This document shows, one piece after another, positions 1 to 14,672 of a stretch of DNA of 64,000 bases (position 1 is the first letter of the stretch; every line of letters starts with the position of its first letter). The notes under the pieces are model-generated. The model did not search any database and was not told the origin of the DNA. It saw nothing but the letters and a program-made list of their open reading frames with translations. Made by a program: the position numbers and the translations under genes. This stretch comes from Caecitellus pseudoparvulus. Taxonomy: Eukaryota; Protista; Bigyra: Bicosoecida. The stretch spans positions 558,001-622,000 of the forward strand of contig CBFFRQ010000066.1 of NCBI GenBank assembly GCA_965644315.1, read 5' to 3'.

Positions 1-1945
1 CTCCTGAATTAACTAAATTATCATATCTAATATAATTTGACTCCATATATATGCTTGAAACGTTTTTATTGTTATCACTAGGGCGTATTAATATTAGTTT
101 TTTTGCTTCTGCTTCATTAATATTTTGAATGTTATTATCATTCATATTTATATCAGTATTGAAAGAACCAGCACTAGCAACAGCATTATCAACATAATTT
201 TTTGTTGCGGCGTCTGTATTTGCTGTAGGTTCTGCCAGTTGTTCTATTTTATTATACCCCATATTTAATTTATAATTAGTATCAATATGATTTCTTGTGA
301 TTTGAAGAGCCATAACATCGTTTGTTCCGTCTTTCACATAGAATCTGTGACCTCCAAATGAGCTATTTATTAAACTATCATAACTTACATAATTTCCAAC
401 CATTCTAATACTTGCCACGCTTTTATTACCATCATCAGGTTTGATTAATGTTAATCTTTTTGCTTGTGCTTCATCAATATCTAAAATGTCATTATCATTT
501 AAATCTAATTGTGTGTATGAAGTTGTGAGAGATTCAGAAAATCCAAAAATGTCTTGGTCTCCTGAAGTTTCGGTAAGTGTTGTTATTTTGAATGTTTTTG
601 CAGGTGCTGATGAGTATAATTCTAAAGCTGTCCCAGACCCTGCATTATTAGTTCTAAATTCCCAAGGTCTTCCAGTTTCAAAACGTAATAAGCTTTGCAT
701 TCCTGCTGATGTATTCTCAAGTATCATTTTATTTGTGAAAGTTTTTTCACCCCCTACATTTTGATTTGTTGTTAAATTTACATAATCAGTTGGTATATTA
801 TCATCTACATATTTTTTTGTTGCTGCTTCATCGTCATCTACAGGCTCAGCAAGACCATAAAGAATATTATTTGACATATTAAAAGGTAGTAATGATTGAA
901 CGCTATTATAATTTATATTAAATGTATTTATTACAGTTCCAGAATTATTATTAAAAAATGAATGTCTATTATTTCCACTACCATTAACATAACGCATTAT
1001 ATTTGTTGTTGGTTCTGACTCAAGATAGTTTGCTTCACTGCCGTCAGTCCTAATTAATATCATTTTATTAGTTTGTATATCTTGTTCAGTAATCAGGGTA
1101 TTTGTGAAAGTTTTTTCACCCCCTACAGTTTGATTTGTTGTTAAATTTACATAATCAGTTGGTGCATTATCATCTACATATTGTTTCGTTGCTGCGTCTC
1201 CAGAAAGTATAGGAGCGCCGACGGAAACCAATCTATTATTATTCATTGAAAGCCTTGTTAAACAATCAATTTGATTCGAGTGTGCGTTAATTCGTAGCAT
1301 TAATGTTTCTGTTCCTCCCTGCATAGTATAAAATGTGTGGCTTCCTGATGATGATTCATTTAAAAATACCAAATCGCCGTTTTCATCTGAATATATTGCT
1401 CTGTCTGTGTCTTGTGTATCTGGATTAATGAACCTTGATTTATGTAAATGTGTATCAGTATTAAATGTTTTAACCCCTGAAATATCTTGATTACCTGATA
1501 ATTTAACCGTATTATTATCAAATTGTTGTTTTGTAATTGGTTCATTTTGGCTGTTTGCATCTCTCACCCTTACTGTGCCTAAATCATACGGTTGTTCTAA
1601 TGTTGTTAATGGTTCGGTTGTTGCATTATTATAAACAATACCTACATCTTGACCGCTTTTAAATATTAAACCTTTGTATCTTGTATTTCCTGCTATATTT
1701 TCTTTTGCAGTAAAACCAGTATCAGCATTAACAGCAGGTGTAGCATTATTAAATTCAACAATTGCATCTTTTACTTTAAATGTTTCAATTTCATTAATGA
1801 TTTCTTCTCCATCCACTTCTAAATTATTTTCAATTGTAACATTTTTAAAAGTAATATTATCTCGTTCTTCCAGTTCTTGAATTACATTTTCCACTAAGCC
1901 TGACCCATTCAAATTTAATGAATAAGATATTCTTGAATCGTCCAT
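1..1945 (-). CDS. Fibre/spike-like repeat protein, >648 aa, 3' end outside window (absent from ORF track)
   Basis: Manual translation from ATG at 1945 (MDDSRISYSLNLNGSGLVENV...) stays open to position 1. Contains three (D/E)AATKxYVD motifs and YVNLTTNQxVGGEKTF / LSGNQDISGVKTF motifs typical of phage tail-fibre and trimeric adhesin stalk repeats. Confidence 0.8.
   Translation of the reverse strand, partial: MDDSRISYSLNLNGSGLVENVIQELEERDNITFKNVTIENNLEVDGEEIINEIETFKVKDAIVEFNNATPAVNADTGFTAKENIAGNTRYKGLIFKSGQDVGIVYNNATTEPLTTLEQPYDLGTVRVRDANSQNEPITKQQFDNNTVKLSGNQDISGVKTFNTDTHLHKSRFINPDTQDTDRAIYSDENGDLVFLNESSSGSHTFYTMQGGTETLMLRINAHSNQIDCLTRLSMNNNRLVSVGAPILSGDAATKQYVDDNAPTDYVNLTTNQTVGGEKTFTNTLITEQDIQTNKMILIRTDGSEANYLESEPTTNIMRYVNGSGNNRHSFFNNNSGTVINTFNINYNSVQSLLPFNMSNNILYGLAEPVDDDEAATKKYVDDNIPTDYVNLTTNQNVGGEKTFTNKMILENTSAGMQSLLRFETGRPWEFRTNNAGSGTALELYSSAPAKTFKITTLTETSGDQDIFGFSESLTTSYTQLDLNDNDILDIDEAQAKRLTLIKPDDGNKSVASIRMVGNYVSYDSLINSSFGGHRFYVKDGTNDVMALQITRNHIDTNYKLNMGYNKIEQLAEPTANTDAATKNYVDNAVASAGSFNTDINMNDNNIQNINEAEAKKLILIRPSDNNKNVSSIYMESNYIRYDNLVNSG
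730..1195. repeat. Near-identical ~95-bp direct repeat in fibre gene (copies ~730-826 and ~1099-1195, period 369 bp = 123 codons)
   Basis: tttgtgaaagttttttcaccccctaca.tttgatttgttgttaaatttacataatcagttggt..attatcatctacata occurs twice. Confidence 0.9.
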
Positions 1946-1995
1946 ATATATTTATAGTGTATAAAAAAAAATATTCTTACAAACTATAATAAAAT

Positions 1996-2838
1996 TTAAT
2001 AATGTTCTTGGGCTGTCCTATATTGTTTGATGATTAAAGATAACTTGACCGAACCACCTTTAATTTTTACTTCTTGATATTCATCATCTAATAGAATAAA
2101 ATCAAGTTGGTTTATTTGGTTGTTTTCTAATAGGTCGTGATTAAAAAATATTTCATCATCTGAGATATAATCGGAGTATGTCCCAATACCTGCTTCAATA
2201 TTTAAACTTAGAAGGACTGGATATTTTAACCTGTTTAAACCTGAACCAAAATAAGAGTTATTTAAAATGCCTTGCTTCATACAAATAAAAACCTTACTAG
2301 TAGCGATAAGATTAGGGTAATTATCACCAATGATATTATTTGATGGGTCAATTTTAATAGCTTCACCGTCGTTATTTTGACTTGCTGGAAATCCTATTTT
2401 ATTCCAAAACTTACCATAATTACCAACTGTTGAAAATTTAATATAATTAGCATCGTTATTAACAATTTTTAAACGTAATGTTGTTGCATCTTGTGTTATT
2501 GTTACATTTCCTCCAGCTGTATTTATAGCCCCTTGTAAGTATGTTGCGAATTGCTCTGTAGAACTAAACACAAGATTCTCATTTACGGTATGTTCTGTTG
2601 TTGATCCATTCTCTATTTCAATTGAAAATGTAGCCCTATCAATTGGATTAAATTGGGGGAATGTATTGGGGACGGATGCAGATTGAACGATAAGACGGTG
2701 GATATAATCACCCCCTGATAAAACAAGCGGTGTCGTGTTAAATTGGGTTGTCCATTCGTAAGTTGTATCATCTGTTCCTTTGTCAATTGCACTATTAATA
2801 TAAATTTCTAAAGTGTTGTTGATATCAATTAAGCTCAT
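1996..2838 (-). CDS. Minor capsid (penton) protein, single jelly-roll
   Basis: 280 aa. N-terminal IYINS, SASVPNTFPQFN motif and C-terminal INQLDFILLDDEYQEV resemble PLV/virophage pentons. Directly downstream of the MCP gene. Confidence 0.75.
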   Translation of the reverse strand: MSLIDINNTLEIYINSAIDKGTDDTTYEWTTQFNTTPLVLSGGDYIHRLIVQSASVPNTFPQFNPIDRATFSIEIENGSTTEHTVNENLVFSSTEQFATYLQGAINTAGGNVTITQDATTLRLKIVNNDANYIKFSTVGNYGKFWNKIGFPASQNNDGEAIKIDPSNNIIGDNYPNLIATSKVFICMKQGILNNSYFGSGLNRLKYPVLLSLNIEAGIGTYSDYISDDEIFFNHDLLENNQINQLDFILLDDEYQEVKIKGGSVKLSLIIKQYRTAQEHY

Positions 2839-2939
2839 TTTATATATTCTTAATTAAGAAAATAAAAAATTCAATTAAAAATTAAATTAGTATTTTTACT
2901 TATTCTTTTTAAAAGGATAAAAGAAAAATTCTTTTTTAT

Positions 2940-4277
2940 TTATTCTACTACTTTTGCTACACCCCCCGCAAGTTCTAATTGACGTTTAAATTTTGTAAGA
3001 CATACTAAATTTTTATTTGAAAAATGTTCAGGTGCTTGAGCTGTATCAAAATCAACAACTAAAGCAGATGAACCAACAAGACTATTAAATCCGTTTTCTG
3101 TTGCGTGTTGGCTATCTTCTGGGGTTTTTAGGAAGAGTCCGCCAAGGACTTGACAAGTATTCACATCTCTTGCCATTTGTGCTGAATATTCGGATGCATA
3201 GCTTCGGCTATGTAATTCAGGTTTTGCAGTTCGTAAAACACCTTCAAAGTGGTCTGTGTATAAGCTTTCACCATTTGCACCATTTACATTTGCATAAGGT
3301 TCTCCTGTAAATTGAATGCGATAATTTGAAGCAAAATTAGTAAAACCATCTCCTACATCTTTCCATACGAAATCGTTTGTTGGGTCTATTGCTAATGTAT
3401 TATATCCGTTTGCGTTTGAACTTCCTGAAGGAACTGTTACATAAGCAGGTAATAAAAGAGTGCTGATAATATCACGCTTTTTAATATTGAATTGGTGTGA
3501 ATGTGTAGTTGCATTTTGAAGGGTCTGATAAGATAAATCATAGCCATAAAATCGATTTACAATTCCTTTTGTGCTTGAACTGTTTGATGTTGGATCAACC
3601 TTTTTTAACATCAGTTGCGCCCCTAAGTTTGTTAATTGGTAAGCTTCCATACTAAACTTAACGTTGTTTAATTCATATTTTATTTGTGCTGTTGGGTCTG
3701 TCCCTCCTGCTGATTTAAATAACATATCTAATTTACTTTGAAGAGTAATTTGAACATTAATAGGAGTGTTACCAACAGGAATTAATTTTTTTAAGTCTAA
3801 TCCAAACAGAGACATAGGAATTGAAAAAGCATAACTTGAAGCCCCTGTTGCACTTAATTCTACATCTTGAAGAGTTTTAACGTTATGAATTGCTAATTCT
3901 TCAGCACTCATATTTAATTTTTTATTCATCATAGCTACCAAATAAGCGTGCTTGCTTAAATTCACAACTAATGCACCCCCAACATATACCTTTAATTGTT
4001 CAATAACTGAGCAAATATCGCCACATAATTTGACATTTGAACCTACTTGACCTCCTGTAACTTTAAATTCACCATCTAATGATAGCGTATCAGCTTGGGG
4101 AACGTGTGAGCCTGTTTGTATTGTTGCATTAAGATTAGTATTTAAATTACCGAATCCGCTGCGTGTCCCTTGCAGGTCGTATTGAAGTCTAGACCTGCTA
4201 TTTACGAGCTTATTAGCTTTTGTTCTTGCACCATCTAAAACACCGCCTAATAGATAAACCTCGTCCTTTTTTTCCAT
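2940..4277 (-). CDS. Major capsid protein, double jelly-roll, PLV-type
   Basis: 445 aa, beta-rich. Contains SVIEQLKVYVGG and FSIPMSLFG..KLIP..NVQITL..YELNNVKF patterns. Lies between the ATPase and penton genes. Confidence 0.8.
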   Translation of the reverse strand: MEKKDEVYLLGGVLDGARTKANKLVNSRSRLQYDLQGTRSGFGNLNTNLNATIQTGSHVPQADTLSLDGEFKVTGGQVGSNVKLCGDICSVIEQLKVYVGGALVVNLSKHAYLVAMMNKKLNMSAEELAIHNVKTLQDVELSATGASSYAFSIPMSLFGLDLKKLIPVGNTPINVQITLQSKLDMLFKSAGGTDPTAQIKYELNNVKFSMEAYQLTNLGAQLMLKKVDPTSNSSSTKGIVNRFYGYDLSYQTLQNATTHSHQFNIKKRDIISTLLLPAYVTVPSGSSNANGYNTLAIDPTNDFVWKDVGDGFTNFASNYRIQFTGEPYANVNGANGESLYTDHFEGVLRTAKPELHSRSYASEYSAQMARDVNTCQVLGGLFLKTPEDSQHATENGFNSLVGSSALVVDFDTAQAPEHFSNKNLVCLTKFKRQLELAGGVAKVVE

Positions 4278-4325
4278 TCTATATATACATTTAGAAAAGA
4301 AAATTATTTTTATAAAAATATTTAT

Positions 4326-5051
4326 TTAAAACTTACTATATATTTCGTTCATTTTGTTATTATAAATCTTCCCTGTTTTCTTATTTAATAAAATAAAACT
4401 ATACTTTTCACCCAAATTATCATATACAAGTTCTTTAAATTCTTCGGTGTTTATATACTGTGAAAAATTATCATCGTATATTTTCCATATTTCCTCATCT
4501 GAACAATTCCAATAAATGGAAACTAAAGTTGAATTAAGCATTCTTACATCACGCCCTAAGAAATGATATTTTTGCGTTGCTATTATACAACCTGTATTTT
4601 TATGTCGTCCTGATGCAAACAACTCAGATAAAAAATTTGTTTTATGGTTGGTGTTCATTTCGTGGTTATATGCCATATCATCAAAAATAAATAAATGTGG
4701 AACTTTTGGATTTAATCCTTTGTATATGTTCTTTAATTCTTCAAAATCTAATGTATCCATTATTAATAATTGCTCTTCATCTAGCTTTAATTTATCAGCC
4801 ATTTTTGATATATGTCTTATTGTTGTATCTGTCCCACTAATTAAAATTATTCTGCTATCTTCTGATTTTGTGTAATATTCTTTACACCAATCCCATAAAA
4901 TATTATGTATCATTTGAGTTTTTCCTGCTTGGCTTGGTCCTGTTAATATCATTCGTGGATGCTCTCCAATTATTGGATGAATTATATTTTTATATTTTTT
5001 ATCCTTGGTTATATCGTCCTCTTCAAATGTATAAACTTTAAATTCTGTCAT
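4326..5051 (-). CDS. A32-like (FtsK-HerA) genome packaging ATPase
   Basis: Walker A GPSQAGKT, Walker B LFIFDD, and GRHKNTGCIIATQKY..VRMLNS motifs characteristic of the family. Confidence 0.92.
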   Translation of the reverse strand: MTEFKVYTFEEDDITKDKKYKNIIHPIIGEHPRMILTGPSQAGKTQMIHNILWDWCKEYYTKSEDSRIILISGTDTTIRHISKMADKLKLDEEQLLIMDTLDFEELKNIYKGLNPKVPHLFIFDDMAYNHEMNTNHKTNFLSELFASGRHKNTGCIIATQKYHFLGRDVRMLNSTLVSIYWNCSDEEIWKIYDDNFSQYINTEEFKELVYDNLGEKYSFILLNKKTGKIYNNKMNEIYSKF

Positions 5052-5073
5052 ATATTAATTAATTAGAAAAAAT

Positions 5074-7146
5074 TTATTTGCCACGTCCTCGTAAAATTCG
5101 CCCCTTTCTTGTTTTCGCTTGTGTTCTGCGTCCTTGTGCTTGTCCTGCTCCTCCTCCTTCTATTTGTCCAGCATAACTTTTTACAATATTTCTTATTTTT
5201 TCTTCCTTGTCTGCTTGTGTAACGCTATCATATGGTTTCCCTGCATCTGGTGAAAAAAAATATGCTTTGCGTTTAATTATATCTTTCATTGCGTCCTCTG
5301 TTACGTCCATTGATTTTATTAAAGCTTTCATATCTTTACTTGGTGAGCCTGATAATAATAATTCTATTTCTTGTGCAATTTGTGCATCTGGATTTTCTCC
5401 ACCCATTACACTTACTTTAATTGAATCTATAAATTGGTTTAATTTTTCGTCTTCTGTGGCTGTTAATTCTCTTACTTCATCTCCTGCTGCAGCTGCTGGG
5501 GCTGGTGCGTCTGTTGGTTCTGGTCTTCTTGGTGCTGGTTCTCTTGTATATATTCCGCTTTTTGGGTCGGCTAAAATTTTAATTACTCTTTTTGCATATT
5601 TTTCTGCCCCTTCTTTTTTTCCGTTTTCATACGTTATTCTTGGTATTTTTTCTGCATTAACTTTAACTAATTCTAAAATTTGTTGTCCATAATATCCCAT
5701 TTGTGTTTTAAATCCACTTGAAGAAATTTCTATTTCGTTATCAGCTAAATATCTATTTAATATTGCATACAAAAATCCTAAATATTGTGGCTTCTTATCT
5801 TGGTTAGCATTTGCTAAATACATTTCTTCTCCTAATTTCTTAGGGTCTTCTTCTTCTGCTTTTTTTAATATGGGAGCTAATGTTAATTTTTTAATCTTTA
5901 ATAATTTTGGTAGGTATAAATAATATACTTCGTTTCGTTGTCCATCTGGTAAGGTATTATATTTAATATCCGCTCTTGCTTTTTTTATTTGTTCTTCTAC
6001 TTTACCAAAATCAATTTTTGAAATAACAATAACTTTATCTTCTAGGGGTAGGGCGTCATATTGTGGTATATTATTTAATACTTGTTTTAATATTGTAATA
6101 GTTTTTGATTCCTTATCACCTGCAATAATATTTATATCCGACTCTTTAATTTTTAATTCGTCAGCCTGTGTTTCATCTAATGAATTTCTTGCTTTTTGAA
6201 TAAAATTTTTCATCTTGTCTATCATACTAGTTCTTGGAGCACCTGTTATTCTTTTTTGGTTCAATACTCCTATAAATTCGTATGCTATTTTATCGGCGAG
6301 GTCTTGGTATTGTTTATCTTTATTTTCTTGTCTTACTTCATCTCCCCTTTGTTGAACTCTTTCCAATAATTTCATACGGTTTTTTCTTAATTCTTCTTGG
6401 CTTGGAATTCCTGCCCCTGTGTCTGCTGGCTCAGGTCGTCTAGGGGCTGGAGCTGGGGCTTCTGTTGTTGGCTTATCTACTGTATGAATACCGCCGCTTG
6501 TATCTATCATTTGTGCCGTTCCTGCTTCTTTGCTTTCACCTGCTCCCCCTTGTGAAGGTGGTTGTGAAGGTGGTTGTGAAGGTGGTTGTGCTGGTGGCTG
6601 GTCTGATGCACCATCAAATTTTTGATTTATTTCTTGTTGCATTTGATTTATTGGCTTTTGTTGTGCAATAAATGATGGGTTAAATTTGTTCTTTAAAAAT
6701 GATTCAGTAGCTTTTGACCTTAAATTTAATATTTCCGCTTGTGAGAGGTTATGACGTTTTCCAAATGCATCAATATAATTTAATATATTCTTTAATTCTC
6801 GTTGTTCTTCATCTAATTCTAGCGTTTCAGGTGTTAGCCCTAAGCTTTTGAATAATTGGTTTTGTATCTTTTCTTCTTTCATTTGCTCATTAAAAAAAGC
6901 TTGTTCAAATGTTTCATCTGTTGTCCCCCAACCTTCATCATAAAACTGTTTGTTATGTAAAATTCGGTCTGCATTTGTAATAACTTCATCTAAATCAATA
7001 TCATCTGCGTCTTCGGCTTCTTGAGGCTCTAATAAATCGGTTCTATAATTTAATAAACCTAAATTTACTAACTGGGTGTTTCTTTCCTCATTTAGCTCTT
7101 CTTGCATTTTATAAATCTGCTCATCTGTCAAAATAAATGGGTTCAT
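5074..7146 (-). CDS. Hypothetical 690-aa protein, possible virion core protein
   Basis: Long ORF in the structural module. Acidic N-terminus, PPSQ x3 and PAPRRPEP x2 repeats, Arg/Lys-rich C-terminal tail. Confidence 0.6.
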   Translation of the reverse strand: MNPFILTDEQIYKMQEELNEERNTQLVNLGLLNYRTDLLEPQEAEDADDIDLDEVITNADRILHNKQFYDEGWGTTDETFEQAFFNEQMKEEKIQNQLFKSLGLTPETLELDEEQRELKNILNYIDAFGKRHNLSQAEILNLRSKATESFLKNKFNPSFIAQQKPINQMQQEINQKFDGASDQPPAQPPSQPPSQPPSQGGAGESKEAGTAQMIDTSGGIHTVDKPTTEAPAPAPRRPEPADTGAGIPSQEELRKNRMKLLERVQQRGDEVRQENKDKQYQDLADKIAYEFIGVLNQKRITGAPRTSMIDKMKNFIQKARNSLDETQADELKIKESDINIIAGDKESKTITILKQVLNNIPQYDALPLEDKVIVISKIDFGKVEEQIKKARADIKYNTLPDGQRNEVYYLYLPKLLKIKKLTLAPILKKAEEEDPKKLGEEMYLANANQDKKPQYLGFLYAILNRYLADNEIEISSSGFKTQMGYYGQQILELVKVNAEKIPRITYENGKKEGAEKYAKRVIKILADPKSGIYTREPAPRRPEPTDAPAPAAAAGDEVRELTATEDEKLNQFIDSIKVSVMGGENPDAQIAQEIELLLSGSPSKDMKALIKSMDVTEDAMKDIIKRKAYFFSPDAGKPYDSVTQADKEEKIRNIVKSYAGQIEGGGAGQAQGRRTQAKTRKGRILRGRGK

Positions 7147-7187
7147 ATATATTATAGACTAATAAAAAAAATTATTGGTTTATACTT

Positions 7188-7625
7188 TTAATAATATTCT
7201 TGTTCCATTTGTTTTAAAATTTCCTCAATTGTATAATCTTTATTTTCCTTTGGTTCTGGTTCTTTTATTATTTCTGGTTTTAGGATTTTTACATACTTTT
7301 TTATTCGCTCCTCTTCCTGCAATCTTGCTTTTTGTTCCCTTCTTCTTCTATATGTTTCTTGTGCCTTCTTTCTTGCATTTCTTAATTGCTCTTGCTTTCG
7401 TTCCGATAATACTTTACGTTGGTTTAATTGCCTTGTTGGCTTATGATAATATTTTCTTGATATATCAATTGGTGGTTCAATCTTAGTTTCTGTGTTAATT
7501 TCAATCTCTTCAATCTTAGTTTCAGTCTCTTCAATCTTTGAACACACTGAAAATTTATTTTTTATATAATTAATAAGCTCTTTTAATTTTTCATAAATAA
7601 ATAATATTGTATAATGTATAATCAT
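7188..7625 (-). CDS. Hypothetical viral protein (145 aa, charged helical)
   Basis: Same strand and packing as neighbours; AT-rich viral codon usage. Confidence 0.55.
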   Translation of the reverse strand: MIIHYTILFIYEKLKELINYIKNKFSVCSKIEETETKIEEIEINTETKIEPPIDISRKYYHKPTRQLNQRKVLSERKQEQLRNARKKAQETYRRRREQKARLQEEERIKKYVKILKPEIIKEPEPKENKDYTIEEILKQMEQEYY

Positions 7626-7658
7626 TTTTATAGGTTATAATTATAACCAATAAAAAAA

Positions 7659-7940
7659 TTAATCAAATCTTACGGTTAGCAATTCTTTATGCACACGCTT
7701 CATTTTCTTTTTTAATGCTTCCTCTTGTTTTCTTTCTCGTTCGGATTCAATAAATTCATCATATGTTAAATATTCTTCGGTATAATCTAAATGTTGAACT
7801 AAATAATAATCAGGACAACTTTTTATAAATTCTACTCGTTGTTGGTTTAGCTGTTTTAAATGTTCTATGTATGCGTTATATTCTTCTTTGGTTGGTTCTC
7901 GTCCTTCAAAAGGGTCTTCATAGTTGTATTTTTTATTCAT
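7659..7940 (-). CDS. Hypothetical viral protein (93 aa)
   Basis: Tightly packed co-oriented ORF with AT-rich leader. Confidence 0.55.
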   Translation of the reverse strand: MNKKYNYEDPFEGREPTKEEYNAYIEHLKQLNQQRVEFIKSCPDYYLVQHLDYTEEYLTYDEFIESERERKQEEALKKKMKRVHKELLTVRFD

Positions 7941-7972
7941 ATTATATATTTGTTTTATAAAAAAAAAAATCT

Positions 7973-8770
7973 TTAAGAACTTATTGTTGGTTTGCCATAA
8001 TATAATTCACTGTTTGTTGGTGTTACACTTTTTAAAATAAAATCAATTGAATGGGCTTCTATTAAATTCTTTGGTTCTGGTTTTGGTTTTAAAACTGTTG
8101 TATTAGGAATTAATAATTTACTTGTTTCGGCTATAATATCGCCTTCCATAACATAAGATTTAATTATATTACTGTCAAAAATATCTTTATAGCTATTACG
8201 AACGCCTAGGATTTTGCTTTTAAATTCCCTTATGCTTTTGCTTAATTGTTGTGTTGGGGATGCTCCAATATTATAAACAATCGCAGGAATACCATATTCA
8301 TTACTTGCATATACTGCTTCAAAACCTCCTAAAGAATGACCAGTAAAATATATATTCTTTATTCCTACCTCTTCTAAAGTGTTTAACATCTTGTTTAAAC
8401 GGTTTGTATTAATTAATAAATTTAATGAAAAGCTACCCCCTGCAATAATATTTAAATCGTCAATAAAATCTATTGGGTCTGTTTGTGTTCCTCTAAATAC
8501 AATAAAAGCTTTTGGGGTTGCTGTTAAATCAATAAATACTGCCATTTTACGGTTGCTTAATGTTTCATTATAAATTAAGTTACTTGTAATAAATGGTCTT
8601 GATGTAGGGCTATCATATACTAATTTACACGCTACCGCACATTGGTATGCATCCCACGGTATAGGGACTTTATAAACGGTCTTTTTAGTAATTGTTGAAG
8701 TTTGCAAAGTTGGTTTATCTGCTGGATTTCCAAGAAAAAAATCGTTAAAGTAATCCACTATTTTATCCAT
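7973..8770 (-). CDS. Class-3 lipase / alpha-beta hydrolase
   Basis: IVFRGT, FTGHSLGG nucleophile elbow, GDII and C-terminal HS catalytic positions. Confidence 0.88.
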   Translation of the reverse strand: MDKIVDYFNDFFLGNPADKPTLQTSTITKKTVYKVPIPWDAYQCAVACKLVYDSPTSRPFITSNLIYNETLSNRKMAVFIDLTATPKAFIVFRGTQTDPIDFIDDLNIIAGGSFSLNLLINTNRLNKMLNTLEEVGIKNIYFTGHSLGGFEAVYASNEYGIPAIVYNIGASPTQQLSKSIREFKSKILGVRNSYKDIFDSNIIKSYVMEGDIIAETSKLLIPNTTVLKPKPEPKNLIEAHSIDFILKSVTPTNSELYYGKPTISS

Positions 8771-8795
8771 ATATTATTATACATAGATAAAAAAT

Positions 8796-9023
8796 TTACT
8801 CAACTATTAAATTTTCTTGTGTTTCAATACGATAAACTTTTTTATTTATTTTTAGCTCCTGTTTATTCTCGCTTTTCATTCTATTGCTTAGGAGTTCTAA
8901 TTTTTCCTTTAGTTCGCCTTGAAATTCTTTTATTTGTTTGCGTAGGTCTTGTATTAGTTCCTTTTGTTCTTCTATATCGTGTCCTAATTGGGTTAAATCC
9001 ATATTTAAATATTTACGGTGCAT
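8796..9023 (-). CDS. Small coiled-coil viral protein (75 aa)
   Basis: Heptad-like E/K/L-rich ORF, co-oriented and tightly packed. Confidence 0.5.
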   Translation of the reverse strand: MHRKYLNMDLTQLGHDIEEQKELIQDLRKQIKEFQGELKEKLELLSNRMKSENKQELKINKKVYRIETQENLIVE

Positions 9024-9061
9024 TATATATTAATTAAATATATTATTTTATATTGATGCGT

Positions 9062-9286
9062 CTAAATTGTAATATAATTTAACGGCTTTAATTTATCTAC
9101 TGGTATAAGTAAATGGTCTTTAATTATTGAACGGTCAAAACGTTTAATTGGCTTGGTTTTAAATTCTTTAAACACTTTGGGGCGATATTTGATATAATAT
9201 ATCCCATCCGTAAAATTAAACATAAAATAAAACCGTGTATTAGGGTTTGTTTTTAATTGTTCTTTAATATATGTTATCTTTTCCAT
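9062..9286 (-). CDS. C-terminal half of a split PD-(D/E)xK nuclease
   Basis: EKI..FYFMFNFTDGIYYIKY..F..F..IPVDKL matches my recollection of the C-terminal part of small viral PD-(D/E)xK nucleases whose N-terminus resembles ORF 10039-10290. Confidence 0.6.
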   Translation of the reverse strand: MEKITYIKEQLKTNPNTRFYFMFNFTDGIYYIKYRPKVFKEFKTKPIKRFDRSIIKDHLLIPVDKLKPLNYITI

Positions 9287-9345
9287 ATTAATTAATATAT
9301 GTTAAAAAACGACTTAAAAAGAAGAAAATATATATAATTAATAAA

Positions 9346-10014
9346 ATGGTAAATTATAAAGATGGTAAAATATATAAGCTTGTTGGTGGTGGTCTGACTT
9401 ATATCGGCTCAACTACTCAAAGACTATCAAAGCGAAAATATCAACATAAAAAAATAAAAAATTGTTCATCCAGACAATTAGTTGATTATGACGATTTTGA
9501 TATTATTTTAATTGAAATTTTTCCGTGTGATACTAAAGAGGAATTACACACAAGAGAACGATATTATATTGAAAATACTGAATGCATAAATCGGAACATA
9601 CCCACAAGGAGTATTAAAGAATACCGAGAAGCTAATAAAGATAAACTTAAAGCATACCGAGAAGATAATAAAAATAAAATTAAAGAATATTATAAAGCAA
9701 ATAAAGAACGAATAAGACAAAAAAATAAAAAATATATAGAAGCAAATAAAGAAAAATTAAAAAAACAACGTAAAGAATATTATAAAGCAAATAAAGAACG
9801 AATAAGACAAAAGAATAAAGCATATATAGAAGCAAATAAAAAAAGAATAATGCAAAAGAAAAAAGCATATTATGAAAAGAATAAAGATAATCTTAAAGCA
9901 TATTATGAAGAAAATAAAGAACAAATAAAGGAAAAGAAAAAAGCATATTATGAAAAGAATAAAGATAAAATAAAAAAACAACGAAAAGCACGTTATGAAG
10001 CACAAAAAAAATAA
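9346..10014 (+). CDS. GIY-YIG endonuclease with Lys-rich repeat tail
   Basis: GKIYKL..TYIGST..LSKRKYQH..IILIE.FPCDTKEEL..RE.YYI..CIN, followed by YY/YIEANKE repeats. The only plus-strand gene in the element. Confidence 0.9.
   Translation: MVNYKDGKIYKLVGGGLTYIGSTTQRLSKRKYQHKKIKNCSSRQLVDYDDFDIILIEIFPCDTKEELHTRERYYIENTECINRNIPTRSIKEYREANKDKLKAYREDNKNKIKEYYKANKERIRQKNKKYIEANKEKLKKQRKEYYKANKERIRQKNKAYIEANKKRIMQKKKAYYEKNKDNLKAYYEENKEQIKEKKKAYYEKNKDKIKKQRKARYEAQKK
9681..9840 (+). repeat. 90-bp-period direct repeat (two 15-aa units) in the GIY-YIG tail
   Basis: taaagaatattataaagcaaataaagaacgaataagacaaaa starts at both 9681 and 9771. Confidence 0.85.
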
Positions 10015-10043
10015 ATAAATTATTATAAAATAACTTATTTATT
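10010..10043. terminator. AT-rich hairpin between convergent GIY-YIG and nuclease N-half genes
   Basis: AATAAATAA (10010-10018) pairs with TTATTTATT (10035-10043), with an inner TTATT/AATAA stem. Confidence 0.4.
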
Positions 10044-10290
10044 GTTTATTTAAAAGTTCATTTAATACATACCTCATTTTATATTTATTGCGTGTATTGG
10101 TTCGTGTTTTAAGCTCAATATTATATTTATTATCAATTGATACGAAATCAAAATGGTTATAGCAATATGTAGTTTTATAAAATTTATTTTTAGTTACTTT
10201 ATTTATTTGTTCTAATACTTTTTGTTCTTGTTGTAAGCCAAATTTTAAATCTCTTTTAATGCTCTGTATATCGAGGCTGGTGTGCCACAT
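10039..10290 (-). CDS. N-terminal half of a split PD-(D/E)xK nuclease
   Basis: DLKFGLQQE..VL..YNHFDF..NIELKTR carries the E...D...ExK active-site pattern, then ends prematurely after KYKM. Confidence 0.7.
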   Translation of the reverse strand: MWHTSLDIQSIKRDLKFGLQQEQKVLEQINKVTKNKFYKTTYCYNHFDFVSIDNKYNIELKTRTNTRNKYKMRYVLNELLNKQ

Positions 10291-10443
10291 ATAATATAGA
10301 AATAGAAAAAAACCAAAGAAAAAGGTTCTTATATAAAATGAAAGAATAAGGTGCGTTAGGTTATAACCATTATATTATTAATTCCCTTTTAAAAGGTTTT
10401 TTTGGTGTCCAGAAAAAAGGTTATGAGGGTGGGATTTACGGTC

Positions 10444-10870
10444 GGACAGGAACAGGAAAATTATTTAAAAAACCTTATTTAGGAAATACCTTTTTCTATT
10501 TTTTTTTAAAATTTGCTGTCTGTCCTGTCTCCTGTCTTAGGTTATTTTATATTAGGTCTTCATTTTATTTCTCATATGAAAGGTAAATTTTTAAAATGGG
10601 TATTATTTTTGGGACAGACAGATACAGCAAAAATTGGTAATTAAATTGAAATATCAAAAAGCTTTTTCTATTTTTTTTTTAAATTTGCTGTCTGTCCTGT
10701 CTCCTGTCTTAGGTTATTAAAATATAATATATAATAATTTCTCATATGAAAGGTAACCCTCAAAAAGAAAAAAATTTATTTTTTTCCGCTATTCATTAAA
10801 TCTCATTTGATGAATTAAGGAAGGAAAGAAAAAAGCGAATGCGACCTTCTTCCTTCCCTTTTTTTTTCTT
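10444..10870. repeat. Terminal repeat region of the element (probable TIR): two ~96-bp direct repeats plus inverted subcopies
   Basis: Copies at 10490-10586 and 10662-10756 (ctttttctattt..aaatttgctgtctgtcctgtctcctgtcttaggttatt..tttctcatatgaaaggtaa). Inverted partial copies at ~10444-10472 and ~10612-10635. Purine/pyrimidine tract 10817-10870. Confidence 0.75.
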
Positions 10871-10880
10871 GCTTGGGCAG

Positions 10881-13800
10881 AGAGGTCATAGTGCCCGGAG
10901 CACACCGACAGCTGAAGTTGCCCTTGAGCTGGCACGAATTGACGAGAGTGAAGCCGAACGGCTTGCAGCAGTGGAAGCTGTTGCGCAGGTGCGCCTGGCC
11001 AAGTTCCTAGCCGCTGCAGAGGGGGAAGCCGGGGCGTGCACGAGTGCAGCACGGTCGTTCGGTTATGCGATACAAGTTCAAGAGCGACAGCTGGAGCTGT
11101 CCCGAAGTGCCATCGAGGCCCTACATGGGGCCGTGCAAGATCACGAAGCAGAGAGTGCTCGGCAACAAGAGGAGCTTGCGCGCGCCCAAGCCGCTGAGCT
11201 TGAAGCGGCTGTGACGGACATGGAGGCGGAGGCGCTACTTGCAAAACATCAGCTGGAAGCAGAGGAGCTGAAGGCAAAACTCGCTGCTGCTGAGCGGCAG
11301 AAGAGCCTCGCCTTGGAGGAAGTGCGCACCCGGCAGGCGTTGGCGTTGGAGGAGGAGGTCAAGCGGTTGCTTGCCGAGCACGAGCGAGAGCAGGACACCG
11401 CCTCTGCAGCCCGATTGGCAGTGCGGAAAGCCCAGCAAGCCTCAGCAAAGAAGGAGCTGGCGGCGCGCCAGGCACGCCGACGCCAAGCTGCAGCACGGCG
11501 GATGGAAGCTCAGCTGTCGCTAGCTCAAGAGGAGGGAGGGGCGACTGATGAGTTGGAAGCAACACTCCAACAGTGCCTGGATGCCAGTGCTAGTGAAGAG
11601 GAGGGGGCACTGCGGGCGCTGGATGACACATGCAGTGTCGACCAGGAAGCTGCGACTCGGCAGTATGCTGCAGGGGTCACGGCTGGCGTCTCGGAGCGAT
11701 TGCGGGTGGGCTCCACCACCGCTCTGGAGAAGAAGGAGCAGGCAGAAACTGCTGCTCGTATGGCAAGGAACTTGTCCAGCAGCATCGTGGAACAAGCTGA
11801 CAGCGTTCGGCAAGCGATTGAATCCGGAGACCTGCAAGAAGCCACAAGCAAAGCGTATGCTGCTGGTGCTGAGGTCGCCCACGACCGACATCAGGCGACT
11901 CTAGCGGCTCTGCGCGCCCAGCATGAGAAGTGGAAGCAGGAGCAAGAAATGATCTCTTCCATAGAAAGCTCCCTACTTGCTGAGGCGGCCAGGATTCAAG
12001 AAGTATACGCCGCTCAGCGACAGGCGACTGTAAATGCGAAGGGCTGTGCCAGACAGAAGCAGGCCATGGCATTGGAGCTCAAGCTGCAGCGACGCAAGCA
12101 AAAGAAGGCAGCATTGGCTGCCCAGCAGCGAAATGCCAAACGGAAGGAGTTCGTGGCTCGCCAAGAGGCTGAGCTGACTCGGCTGCTTCGGGAGCAGCGC
12201 AGCAAGGTGATGCAGTCTGCTAAGAACGGGAGCCTTTCCATAGTCCATGCTGTTGAGGCTGCAGCAGCAGCAGCTGGTCAGAGCCATGATCAAGAGGCAG
12301 ACAGCGAGGCGGCTGGCATTCAGGCTGAGTACGAGGCAAGGCGCCTGGAGGTAGCCCAACGCCACGCAGCAGAGCTTCAGCGTCTTCGAGATGAGGCGGA
12401 AGAGGAAGAACGGCAGGTGTCCCAGCAAGCTCTTGACGCTGCTGAACGCATGAAACGCGAGCGACTGGCAGCTCTGGAACGGGAAGGCGCAGCGGAAGCT
12501 CAGTGGGGCGCATCGGAGGCGCAGCTTGCCGAAATCAAAGCTGCTCAGGTTGCTGAAGCGCAGAAGGTAGAAGCAGCGGTGGAGGAAGAGCGAAAGAAAC
12601 AGTTGGATAAACTTCAAGCTCAAATTGCAGCGCGGCGTTTGCGGAAAGAGCGCCGGCTGGCTGCCCGGCATGCGCATGAGTCGTCCGAAGTGGAGCGGGG
12701 GGAAGTGCAGGCGCTCGCCGCGTCGCAAGCAGCGGCTGCGAAGCGCAGGGACTTGGTAGCGCTGGAGAGTGCCATACAAGCATCACAAAGCACAGCTGAC
12801 AAGGGGGCTGCCATCGAACGGGTGCTGCGTGTTCGCCATGCACAGGAAACTTCCAACTTGCTGCATGCCCAGTTTGCGCAGCGCTCTGCAGAGCTCAAGC
12901 ACGCGTTGCATGAGATCCTCGGCCTCAAAGCTGAGGAGAAAGCGGAGCTCATGGCAACACTGGAGGAGGCGGAGGCAAGCGATGGCGAGGTGACCCTTGC
13001 CCTGAGTGAACTGGATGCAAAGTTCCAGCAAGCCCTGGCCATCAAGCGCAAGGAGCTCTCGGCGCAGCTGGATGCACAGCACGAAGCACAGCGCGCGGAG
13101 CTCCAACGCCGGCAGATGACAGAGCTTACGGATTCATTTGCGCAGCTGAATCCAGCTGACGTGCTGCGTCGGCAGCAGGCCAAGGAGCGGGAGAGAGCTG
13201 CAGCTGAAACAGAGGACTTGAAGCGACGACTGTTGCTCGAACGCCAGAAGAAGCTTGAGGCTGCTGCAAAGCTTCGTGCCCAGCGTGAAGCGGAGCTTGA
13301 AGCAGCAAAGACTGAAGCGCAGCAGGCGCTTGCGGCACAGCTCGAAGCGCAGAAGGCTGAGCAAGAGCAAGCCATGCGTTTGCAAATGGCAAGCCGCAAG
13401 GCACGACTGCAAGCAGAGGGAGAAAGCAAGATGAAGGAGCAGCTGGAGCTGAGCGGTGAAGATGAAGATACGAAGCGGCGCGTCCTTGAGGAACACAAGC
13501 GCAACATGCAGAGGCTGGAAACGTCCATCTCAAAGGAGCGCCGGCGACAAGCGGAACGTCTGCAGGCACACTTATTGAAGAGGAAGCAGAAACTGCTGCG
13601 AAAGCAGCAGAGAGCACTTGCCCAGGCAAGTCAAGCCGTTGCATCCCAAAGCATTCAGCAGCTGGACACTGCCCTTTCCTCTGCGCACACTATGCGAAGG
13701 GGTCGCAGGAAGGCGGGAGGCGACAAGGTTGCACCCGCAACGGGTGCCCCGACAACTACAGGAAGCGAAGTCTCCCCAGCAAAACCTCCGAGGCCTAGTA

Positions 13801-14672
13801 AATCTCAAGGGCGGAGAGGTCCTCCGAAACTTGCAACCGTGGCGAGCACTGGTGTGCTGGAGCAACGTTTGGGGAACATCGAGCGCTCCTTGGCGAACTT
13901 GCTCTCAGCTACAGCACACATCCCGTCAGCGGCACCGATGCTATGCAGTGCTGATGCGTTTGAGCTTCGTATCCGGGTCGGTAAATTCGTTGAAGTTGCC
14001 AAGGAGCTGCCAGTGGAAGCTCAAGGCATGCTCAGCTTCGGCCAGCGACTCATGTCTACCCTTACTGAGGAAAAGCACCAAGTGCACTTGAAGCCTGCAA
14101 AACAACTGCCCCCTGCAGTAAGCGAGGGGAACGCTTTCAGTCGTTCATATCTGTTTGACCAACCTGCTGGCATCCTGTACGTGCACATTGAGCGACTGTC
14201 GAGGGGAGCCCGCCTACCCATTGTCCTGGCCCACGCTGCAGCTCACATGAAGGTTGATCCGTCAACCATGGGGCCTGACACGAACTCTGTATTTCAAGGG
14301 TGCTTTGGGGAGTTCTTGGCCCAAGTGAGTGAGCTTCTTCTGGAGTTCGGCGGTGGGGTGACGCTAGCTGACTCGGCCCAGCCTCCACCTGATTCGGTGG
14401 CCTTTGCCGCGACGGGAAGCACCCTAGACAAGCCGGAGGCGACGCTGGCAATGCGCTTGCCCTCCTTGGATCCACATCCAGGCCTGGAGGGTGGGGCCGG
14501 CGCGCCTGCGGAAGCCGTTCCTGGCGGCAGGGCTCCAAGCGTCCGTTTAGACACTCGTGCTGATCGTTTGCTCGCCATGCTTGGCCAGAGCAGCACGCGC
14601 AAAATGGACACAGGGGCGGTGGCAGCCCGAGCTCGCGAGTACTCCTCCCGGGCAAAGTCCTTGCTGCAGTGA
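10881..14672 (+). CDS. 3' part of a very large host coiled-coil protein, 5' end interrupted by the viral element
   Basis: >1200 codons of E/A/Q/R-rich coiled coil and a C-terminal GNAFSRSYLFD..LYVHIERL..LAHAAAH domain. The tracked ATG at 10839 lies in AT-rich element sequence. Confidence 0.75.
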   Translation, partial: RGHSARSTPTAEVALELARIDESEAERLAAVEAVAQVRLAKFLAAAEGEAGACTSAARSFGYAIQVQERQLELSRSAIEALHGAVQDHEAESARQQEELARAQAAELEAAVTDMEAEALLAKHQLEAEELKAKLAAAERQKSLALEEVRTRQALALEEEVKRLLAEHEREQDTASAARLAVRKAQQASAKKELAARQARRRQAAARRMEAQLSLAQEEGGATDELEATLQQCLDASASEEEGALRALDDTCSVDQEAATRQYAAGVTAGVSERLRVGSTTALEKKEQAETAARMARNLSSSIVEQADSVRQAIESGDLQEATSKAYAAGAEVAHDRHQATLAALRAQHEKWKQEQEMISSIESSLLAEAARIQEVYAAQRQATVNAKGCARQKQAMALELKLQRRKQKKAALAAQQRNAKRKEFVARQEAELTRLLREQRSKVMQSAKNGSLSIVHAVEAAAAAAGQSHDQEADSEAAGIQAEYEARRLEVAQRHAAELQRLRDEAEEEERQVSQQALDAAERMKRERLAALEREGAAEAQWGASEAQLAEIKAAQVAEAQKVEAAVEEERKKQLDKLQAQIAARRLRKERRLAARHAHESSEVERGEVQALAASQAAAAKRRDLVALESAIQASQSTADKGAAIERVLRVRHAQETSNLLHAQFAQRSAELKHALHEILGLKAEEKAELMATLEEAEASDGEVTLALSELDAKFQQALAIKRKELSAQLDAQHEAQRAELQRRQMTELTDSFAQLNPADVLRRQQAKERERAAAETEDLKRRLLLERQKKLEAAAKLRAQREAELEAAKTEAQQALAAQLEAQKAEQEQAMRLQMASRKARLQAEGESKMKEQLELSGEDEDTKRRVLEEHKRNMQRLETSISKERRRQAERLQAHLLKRKQKLLRKQQRALAQASQAVASQSIQQLDTALSSAHTMRRGRRKAGGDKVAPATGAPTTTGSEVSPAKPPRPSKSQGRRGPPKLATVASTGVLEQRLGNIERSLANLLSATAHIPSAAPMLCSADAFELRIRVGKFVEVAKELPVEAQGMLSFGQRLMSTLTEEKHQVHLKPAKQLPPAVSEGNAFSRSYLFDQPAGILYVHIERLSRGARLPIVLAHAAAHMKVDPSTMGPDTNSVFQGCFGEFLAQVSELLLEFGGGVTLADSAQPPPDSVAFAATGSTLDKPEATLAMRLPSLDPHPGLEGGAGAPAEAVPGGRAPSVRLDTRADRLLAMLGQSSTRKMDTGAVAARAREYSSRAKSLLQ

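Follow-up and report, generated by a model that had tools for sequence, protein, structure and literature searches.

Inside an AT-rich, integrated and probably Polinton-like element of Caecitellus pseudoparvulus, a GIY-YIG endonuclease gene lies antisense within a PD-(D/E)xK nuclease gene and leaves it as two open reading frames (ORFs). In our reading, a mobile GIY-YIG cassette inserted here recently, guided by microhomology, and likely inactivated the resident nuclease (probability roughly 60%). The window is the whole 64,000-nt stretch of contig CBFFRQ010000066.1 that was analyzed, and all positions refer to it (Table 1).

Table 1. Positions of the split nuclease gene, its insert and the surrounding element in the window.
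Feature	Position	Strand	Remarks
AT-rich integrated Polinton-like element, right part	1..10867		GC 23–34% vs 58–71% beyond
Presumed capsid genes	2940-4277, 1996-2838		capsid identity inferred
A32 packaging ATPase	4326-5051		Pox_A32, E = 1.1e-6
Lipase-like gene	7973-8770
C-half of PD-(D/E)xK gene	9062..9286	-	74 aa; starts at a Met within the ancestral frame
C-half AT-rich leader	9287..9301	-	9287-9294 former coding DNA; 9295-9301 junction sequence
Insert, 784 nt	9295..10078		N-half tail, hairpin, GIY-YIG gene and leader; replaces 8 nt of the uninterrupted allele
GIY-YIG leader	9302..9345	+	homologues elsewhere match from 9302-9306 on and differ before
GIY-YIG endonuclease gene	9346..10014	+	222 aa; N-terminal nuclease domain and charged repeat tail
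45/33-nt tandem repeats	9559..10041	+	encode the GIY-YIG C-terminal tail; copy number varies among relatives, whose contigs show joints inside the tail
AT-rich hairpin	10006..10047		between the convergent N-half and GIY-YIG stops; 19-nt arms, 89% complementary
N-half of PD-(D/E)xK gene	10039..10290	-	83 aa; ancestral residues 1-70 and a 13-aa insert-derived tail
Microhomology, 10 nt	10079..10088		found in the nuclease gene as well as in the donor context of this insert end
N-half leader	10291..10310	-	two TCTA motifs

Structure of the split nuclease gene

All three ORFs were found where the first-pass annotation had placed them, with the GIY-YIG ORF antisense to both nuclease ORFs. Based on the comparisons below, 10290-10039 and 9286-9062 can be identified as the N- and C-halves of one predicted gene of ~140 aa with a PD-(D/E)xK (PDDEXK_14-like) product. 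The ancestral part of the N-half holds D14, G18, E22, D48, E59, K61, and R63, and the catalytic-motif residues all lie in this half. The C-half retains an invariant Lys (its residue 3), a conserved Asp, two Arg, and an I-P pair. Four codons (I-L-I-N) stand directly 5' of its ATG and are preceded by an in-frame stop. At 9279-9283, a Glu precedes the invariant Lys, a position at which Asn, Ser, and Asp are the commonest residues in the family.

The N-half and GIY-YIG stops are 24 nt apart, and 59 nt separate the GIY-YIG start from the C-half start. These short gaps agree with the earlier description of a GIY-YIG gene as the only thing between the halves, but the insert itself is longer than that ORF. 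The AT-rich leader of the C-half and a hairpin 3' of the N-half stop (15 bp), both noted earlier, are present. This leader resembles those of neighbouring genes but has no TCTA motif. The hairpin is no more stable than shuffles of like composition (folding z-score -0.73).

The nuclease family

The C-half alone retrieved 20 viral and 30 metagenome loci, and the complete ones are single ORFs of ~130–160 aa. The first half of these ORFs aligns to the N-half (best E = 2.6e-8), and because the loci were retrieved with the C-half alone, the colinearity of the halves goes beyond chance. An alignment scan with the C-half gave the same 20 viral contigs again. Against a family profile, the halves match positions 6-71 and 74-145 (E = 7e-16 and 2e-18, respectively). 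At E 0.001 the family counts 1,868 representatives; nearly every one of the best 150 is full length.

We scanned 131 loci (some contigs were retrieved twice) and left out one chance match, giving 130. A single full ORF is intact in 125 of these (of the others, four are cut by a contig end and one contains an in-frame stop). None of the 130 showed an insert at this site; they are mostly distant relatives and include one scan that covered the best 80 of 237 matches and so favours full-length copies. The locus with the in-frame stop in mid-gene (L037, 921-1418) is without the insert and may be a pseudogene or a sequencing error. Word-seeded protein searches with the N-half gave no match, either longer or near; one viral locus from an N-half search (L001) was dropped as a chance match. 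Taken with the uninterrupted allele in contigs of runs X6 and X8 (see below), the colinear matches to single ORFs bear out the earlier view of one nuclease gene in two ORFs: the halves neither hit unrelated families nor occurred as separate genes in relatives that lack the GIY-YIG gene.

Pfam PDDEXK_14 (PF24579) matches nine of ten intact relatives (best E = 1.4e-7), and the N-half alone scores 15.2 bits, below the cut-off. The same domain is listed among those of Polinton-like viruses (PLVs) in the accessible part of a recent report (10.64898/2026.05.28.728513). The residues E22, D48, E59, and K61, which make up the D...E-x-K motif and the Glu of the upstream helix, fall on columns conserved in 141–150 of 150 members. 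For a structure model of an intact relative (pLDDT 93), the closest fold is the Hjc resolvase 1gef (Z 9.3, rmsd 5.1, 105 aligned), followed by SSV D212 (2w8m; Z 8.4) and I-Ssp6803I (2ost; Z 6.2). Profile and model together assign the ancestral nuclease a PDDEXK_14-like identity and a predicted restriction-endonuclease-like fold; its modelled Hjc-like fold suggests that the resident enzyme was perhaps a junction resolvase. It shares profile and fold with PDDEXK_14 and the fold neighbours, yet the solved relatives are all distant (none was found by sequence, or by Foldseek at E 0.001) and its role in these viruses is only predicted.

The uninterrupted allele and the extent of the insert

The uninterrupted allele, which the annotation had proposed to seek in sister elements, occurs in one contig each of the marine metagenome runs X6 (305 nt) and X8 (337 nt), which belong to a single study. 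The contigs were placed on the window at 80% likeness (joint sides: 85 in X6, 45 in X8) and join 9294 to 10079, skipping 784 nt, with eight other letters in between and the frame kept. Read in frame, this junction gives Y-N-T-T-I-I-N-M-E-K, the second motif of the family. The annotation had joined the halves as KYKM/ILINMEKI; its spacing holds, but the K-M and I-L letters are not ancestral, because the uninterrupted allele reads otherwise and they come from insert and junction sequence. On the N side, the window and the uninterrupted allele are identical at 175/179 nt (X6) and 181/185 nt (X8), and on the C side they differ at 11/84 nt plus two gaps (X6) and 4/45 nt (X8). The uninterrupted contigs derive from a related element distinct from that of the window.

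The split form is also found outside the assembly: a short-read contig from the host run X3 (possibly the same strain) covers 9973-10311, its alignment showing one gap and no mismatches. No split allele was seen in X6 or X8, among contigs that can show presence but not absence; those of X5 and X7 barely cover the halves. Run X3 also contains a variant of the nuclease sequence near 10162, along with a number of diverged GIY-YIG contigs. Comparison with X6 contigs gives the region a mosaic look with a breakpoint at the insert (~98% identity for 10079-10340; 81–93% for 7260-9294).

The insert sits antisense at codon 71 of the nuclease gene. The uninterrupted allele matches the window from 10079 upward, and other X6 and X8 contigs match 10012-10088 and then run into the end (stop codon) of a different gene. 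Because the 10012-10088 stretch sits behind the stop of another gene in these contigs, the 13-aa N-half tail and the hairpin represent imported non-coding DNA. The hairpin is likely a transcript end common to the N-half and the GIY-YIG gene that arrived with the insert. At the opposite end, the edge of the GIY-YIG leader (9302-9306) is seen again in contigs of X5, X6, and X7, including a loose contig end at 9305. This edge marks the C-side boundary of the mobile unit, which consists of leader, gene, and terminator. Neither a target duplication nor a terminal inverted repeat was seen at the insert ends, and the junctions look like microhomology repair. Two X3 contigs run from 10032 back to 9325 with 9–10 letters between, which may reflect tandem GIY-YIG genes in another element or a chance match of AT-rich sequence.

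The GIY-YIG gene

The GIY-YIG product contains Y10, Y19-I20-G21, R30, H34, E71, and N82, which we take to be the motif residues of this nuclease class. Its relatives are 34–57% identical and share the same motifs. Profile matches were weak (TIGR01453: 13.7 bits, cut-off 56; PHROG homing endonuclease: E = 0.12), and Pfam gave no match to this ORF. A GIY-YIG gene lies near the nuclease in 10 of the 130 loci and directly adjoins an intact nuclease copy in four, so the two are common neighbours. Related copies of the gene also occur at unrelated sites, and GIY-YIG genes are variable in these viruses. They accumulate in PLV-like contigs, for example, three within 4.6 kb in one viral locus (L132; L132/L133, about 700-4070) and two in another (L137). 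Free-standing GIY-YIG genes, mostly stand-alone, are described as widespread in PLVs in the accessible text of several reports (PMC12220804; PMC3671162, PMC4642659, PMC10945749, 10.64898/2026.07.28.741278).

Fate of the nuclease and origin of the insert

The split has cost the ancestral protein six residues that neither half encodes; the conserved T-T-I-I strand is among them. In the model of the intact relative, the lost stretch is strand 61-65 (pLDDT 93), and 133 of 150 members retain its Thr. A two-chain model of the halves, a check proposed in the annotation, passed at 0.71 compared to 0.13 for the best control (the mark was reached by 51 of 78 solved pairs and 2 of 108 mismatched pairs). 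Its runs agreed in at least 66% of contacts, with a partner pLDDT of at least 77 and strand 56-61 pairing with strand 18-24. Two pieces of a single fold are prone to pass such a test through likeness. The 13-aa tail lies outside the confident interface of the two-chain model, and its pLDDT is ~65 in the N-half model. In neutral simulations, both frames stayed open in 53–73% of cases at 1–2% divergence and in 18% at 6%; open frames are therefore expected, because the N-side divergence is only ~2%, as in a young insertion. The C-half is ~88% identical to X6 contigs, and its ~12% divergence comprises 11 synonymous and 5 non-synonymous codons among the 20 that were listed out of 30 differences. 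If this divergence accrued after the split, the split would be older and under selection, but the differences cannot be assigned to that period.

It is likely that the GIY-YIG insertion inactivated the resident nuclease rather than leaving a working enzyme in two pieces. The existence of the uninterrupted allele argues for this reading, as do the prevalence of one full ORF among related loci, the occurrence of both insert ends in other contexts in related elements, the loss of a conserved strand that the new tail does not replace in the confident interface, and open frames that are compatible with neutrality. Against it stand the survival of all catalytic residues and the invariant Lys, the C-half ATG with its neighbour-like leader, the passing two-chain model, the mostly synonymous C-side differences, the bias of the locus scans towards full-length copies, and the retained function of such splits in T4-like phages, as the accessible text of one account has it (PMC2988022). 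Under inactivation, a double-strand break in the nuclease gene, perhaps made by a GIY-YIG enzyme, would have been patched at the 10-nt microhomology with DNA of a co-resident or co-infecting element, the cassette being a recent arrival from another site. Transcription of the GIY-YIG gene would continue, starting at its own leader and ending at the shared hairpin, and the halves would be open as too little time has elapsed. The resident nuclease activity may have been lost or may be provided by further elements that share the cell.

A working gene in pieces is the strongest of the competing readings, though we regard it as unlikely. Here, both halves would be made and come together at the central sheet, with the 13-aa tail substituting for the lost strand, as the new tails do in NrdA of phage Aeh1. 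The two-chain score speaks for such assembly, tail residues Y74-V75 align with the two hydrophobic columns of the strand that was lost, an AT-rich leader precedes the in-frame ATG of the C-half, the C-half differences are mostly synonymous, and phages provide precedents (in the accessible text of PMC3045599 and PMC2988022). However, a pass is expected of halves of one fold, the tail lies outside the confident interface, the widely kept Thr is gone, and the C-half gained no new tail. Its leader is also without TCTA whereas that of the N-half has it, yet 7 of the 12 element genes are without this motif. The split was seen once, and the target nuclease is not known as an essential enzyme. The annotation had offered either a two-chain nuclease or a nuclease replacement; replacement fits best, and the two-chain option is weakened by the lost strand and by open frames that a young insertion would show in any case.

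Somewhat less probable still is established intronless homing, in which the uninterrupted allele would be cut by the GIY-YIG enzyme and receive a copy of the cassette, one nuclease gene thereby displacing another in the population. Filled and empty alleles both exist, the GIY-YIG motif residues are intact, and the divergence steps up at the site (differences in X6: N side 4/179, C side 11/84, Fisher p 0.0009; X8: Fisher p 0.049), as one-sided co-conversion would produce. A recent swap of the right end explains this step equally, because the C-side divergence is that of the element body (7–19%). Moreover, a single filled allele cannot show spread (0/130 loci are filled, one scan being the best 80 of 237), related GIY-YIG genes occupy unrelated sites, and free-standing enzymes usually cleave well away from the gene that encodes them, according to the accessible text of PMC2988022. 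The fuller scenario, with intron-less homing into a rival nuclease gene and the victim surviving as a two-chain enzyme with a tail from the terminator of its invader, appears improbable, slightly more so than homing by itself.

Removal of the insert from the RNA as a spliceosomal or self-splicing intron is very improbable. There is a donor-like AG|GTATGT at the insert start, and a pyrimidine tract with an AG lies near its end. Among the GT/GC-AG pairs near the junctions, however, only two leave the C-half in frame, each removing part of the conserved motif (products of 145 and 132 aa vs 150 aa). The Rfam search returned no intron family (one snoR30 match, E = 0.021 and below the gathering threshold, was taken as chance), and only 64 and 51 nt flank the GIY-YIG ORF. 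The earlier description of an intron-less GIY-YIG gene antisense within the nuclease gene fits these results, since a frame-restoring splice would cost part of the motif. An assembly chimera of multi-copy elements has a negligible probability: many similar elements occur in run X3 and the C-side junction is bridged by no record among those listed, but the separate X3 short-read contig (possibly of the same strain) crosses the N-side junction, and two independent misjoins 8 nt apart within one gene are unlikely.

Comparison with known systems

The splitting of a gene by an endonuclease gene is already known in phages. In the accessible text on T4-like phages, transposition-like insertions of free-standing endonuclease genes comprise mobE in Aeh1 nrdA, mobA in T4 gene 60, and seg43(25) (PMC3045599, PMC2988022); split essential enzymes remained active, and Aeh1 requires tails on both pieces (PMC2988022, PMC3045599). 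Our case shares with these accounts an intron-less endonuclease gene inside a gene that is continuous in relatives, two resulting ORFs, and a new tail; as in Aeh1, one ancestral gene flanks an endonuclease gene as two ORFs with no splicing element. It differs from the cases described there in lying within a eukaryotic virus-like element and in involving a GIY-YIG rather than an HNH endonuclease (mobE). The target here is a small nuclease that is not known to be essential, and any function of its halves is putative. Unlike Aeh1, which retains the protein core and has two tails, ancestral residues were lost here and only the N-half carries a tail.

The inserted gene is of the same kind as the free-standing GIY-YIG genes of PLVs and virophages, which are patchy, sometimes duplicated, and called homing endonucleases (in the accessible text of PMC12220804, PMC3671162, PMC4642659, and PMC10945749). 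In those portions the genes stand alone or are fused, with no mention of a gene insertion or of a filled and empty pair; the name is used by analogy, and no target is given. The literature searched describes no PLV gene split by a GIY-YIG gene, and supplements (two bioRxiv preprints, PLV gene tables) could hold cases. Endonuclease gene exchange in phages, as far as described in the accessible part of PMC10448857, likewise puts one nuclease class in the place of another, but by whole-gene swaps between genes, whereas in our case the resident gene persists as two pieces.

With mapped junctions, the filled and empty pair shows that the GIY-YIG gene, its leader, and its terminator move as one unit, and it provides a concrete substrate on which the assumed homing activity of PLV GIY-YIG enzymes becomes testable. 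If the halves cooperate, splice-free genes in pieces would extend from phages to eukaryotic viruses; if they do not, the locus is a well-documented gene disruption that illustrates accessory-gene reshuffling in these elements.

The host element

The element is likely Polinton-like, based on its ATPase, composition, and layout; its left end falls beyond the window. The integrated PLV-like element recognized in the annotation is supported by an A32 ATPase within the AT-rich integrated stretch, and its capsid genes are presumed: the 445-aa ORF beside the ATPase had no significant match (best E = 0.06, to a profile built from proteins of the retrieved loci). Long contigs of the host flank (runs X5, X6, X7) begin to match the window only at 10868, as expected of sites without the element, and marine metagenome contigs carry near-identical host flanks, which suggests a marine protist as the host. 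Runs X8–X14, with a small share of matching words, were left out of this habitat reading, and X8 was the one among them placed on the window. The host RIO1 protein has three relatives at 79–80%, and no named relative exceeds 61%. Searches of viral contigs by capsid, ATPase, or the 24-nt insert-end pattern found no close relatives of the element, and ten window proteins had no exact-sequence match in the protein collection.

A TCTA motif stands at most 25 nt upstream of 5 of 12 element genes (leaders of 10290, 8770, 7146, 5051, and 4277), compared to a shuffle mean of 1.5 (p 0.009). This motif resembles the late promoter motif of CroV and mavirus as given in the accessible text of PMC8547959, hinting at transcription by a CroV-like giant virus. 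At its right end, the element borders on a long host reading frame of coiled-coil type (10839-14672), which it likely interrupts. After the presumed minor capsid gene, a long repeat-containing ORF on the minus strand (1-1945) runs off the window; we presume from its general resemblance that it is fibre-like. The non-coding right end holds two 112-nt direct repeats (10435-10546 and 10607-10718) that are 79% alike, share identical 20-mers, and are likely part of the terminal repeat region.
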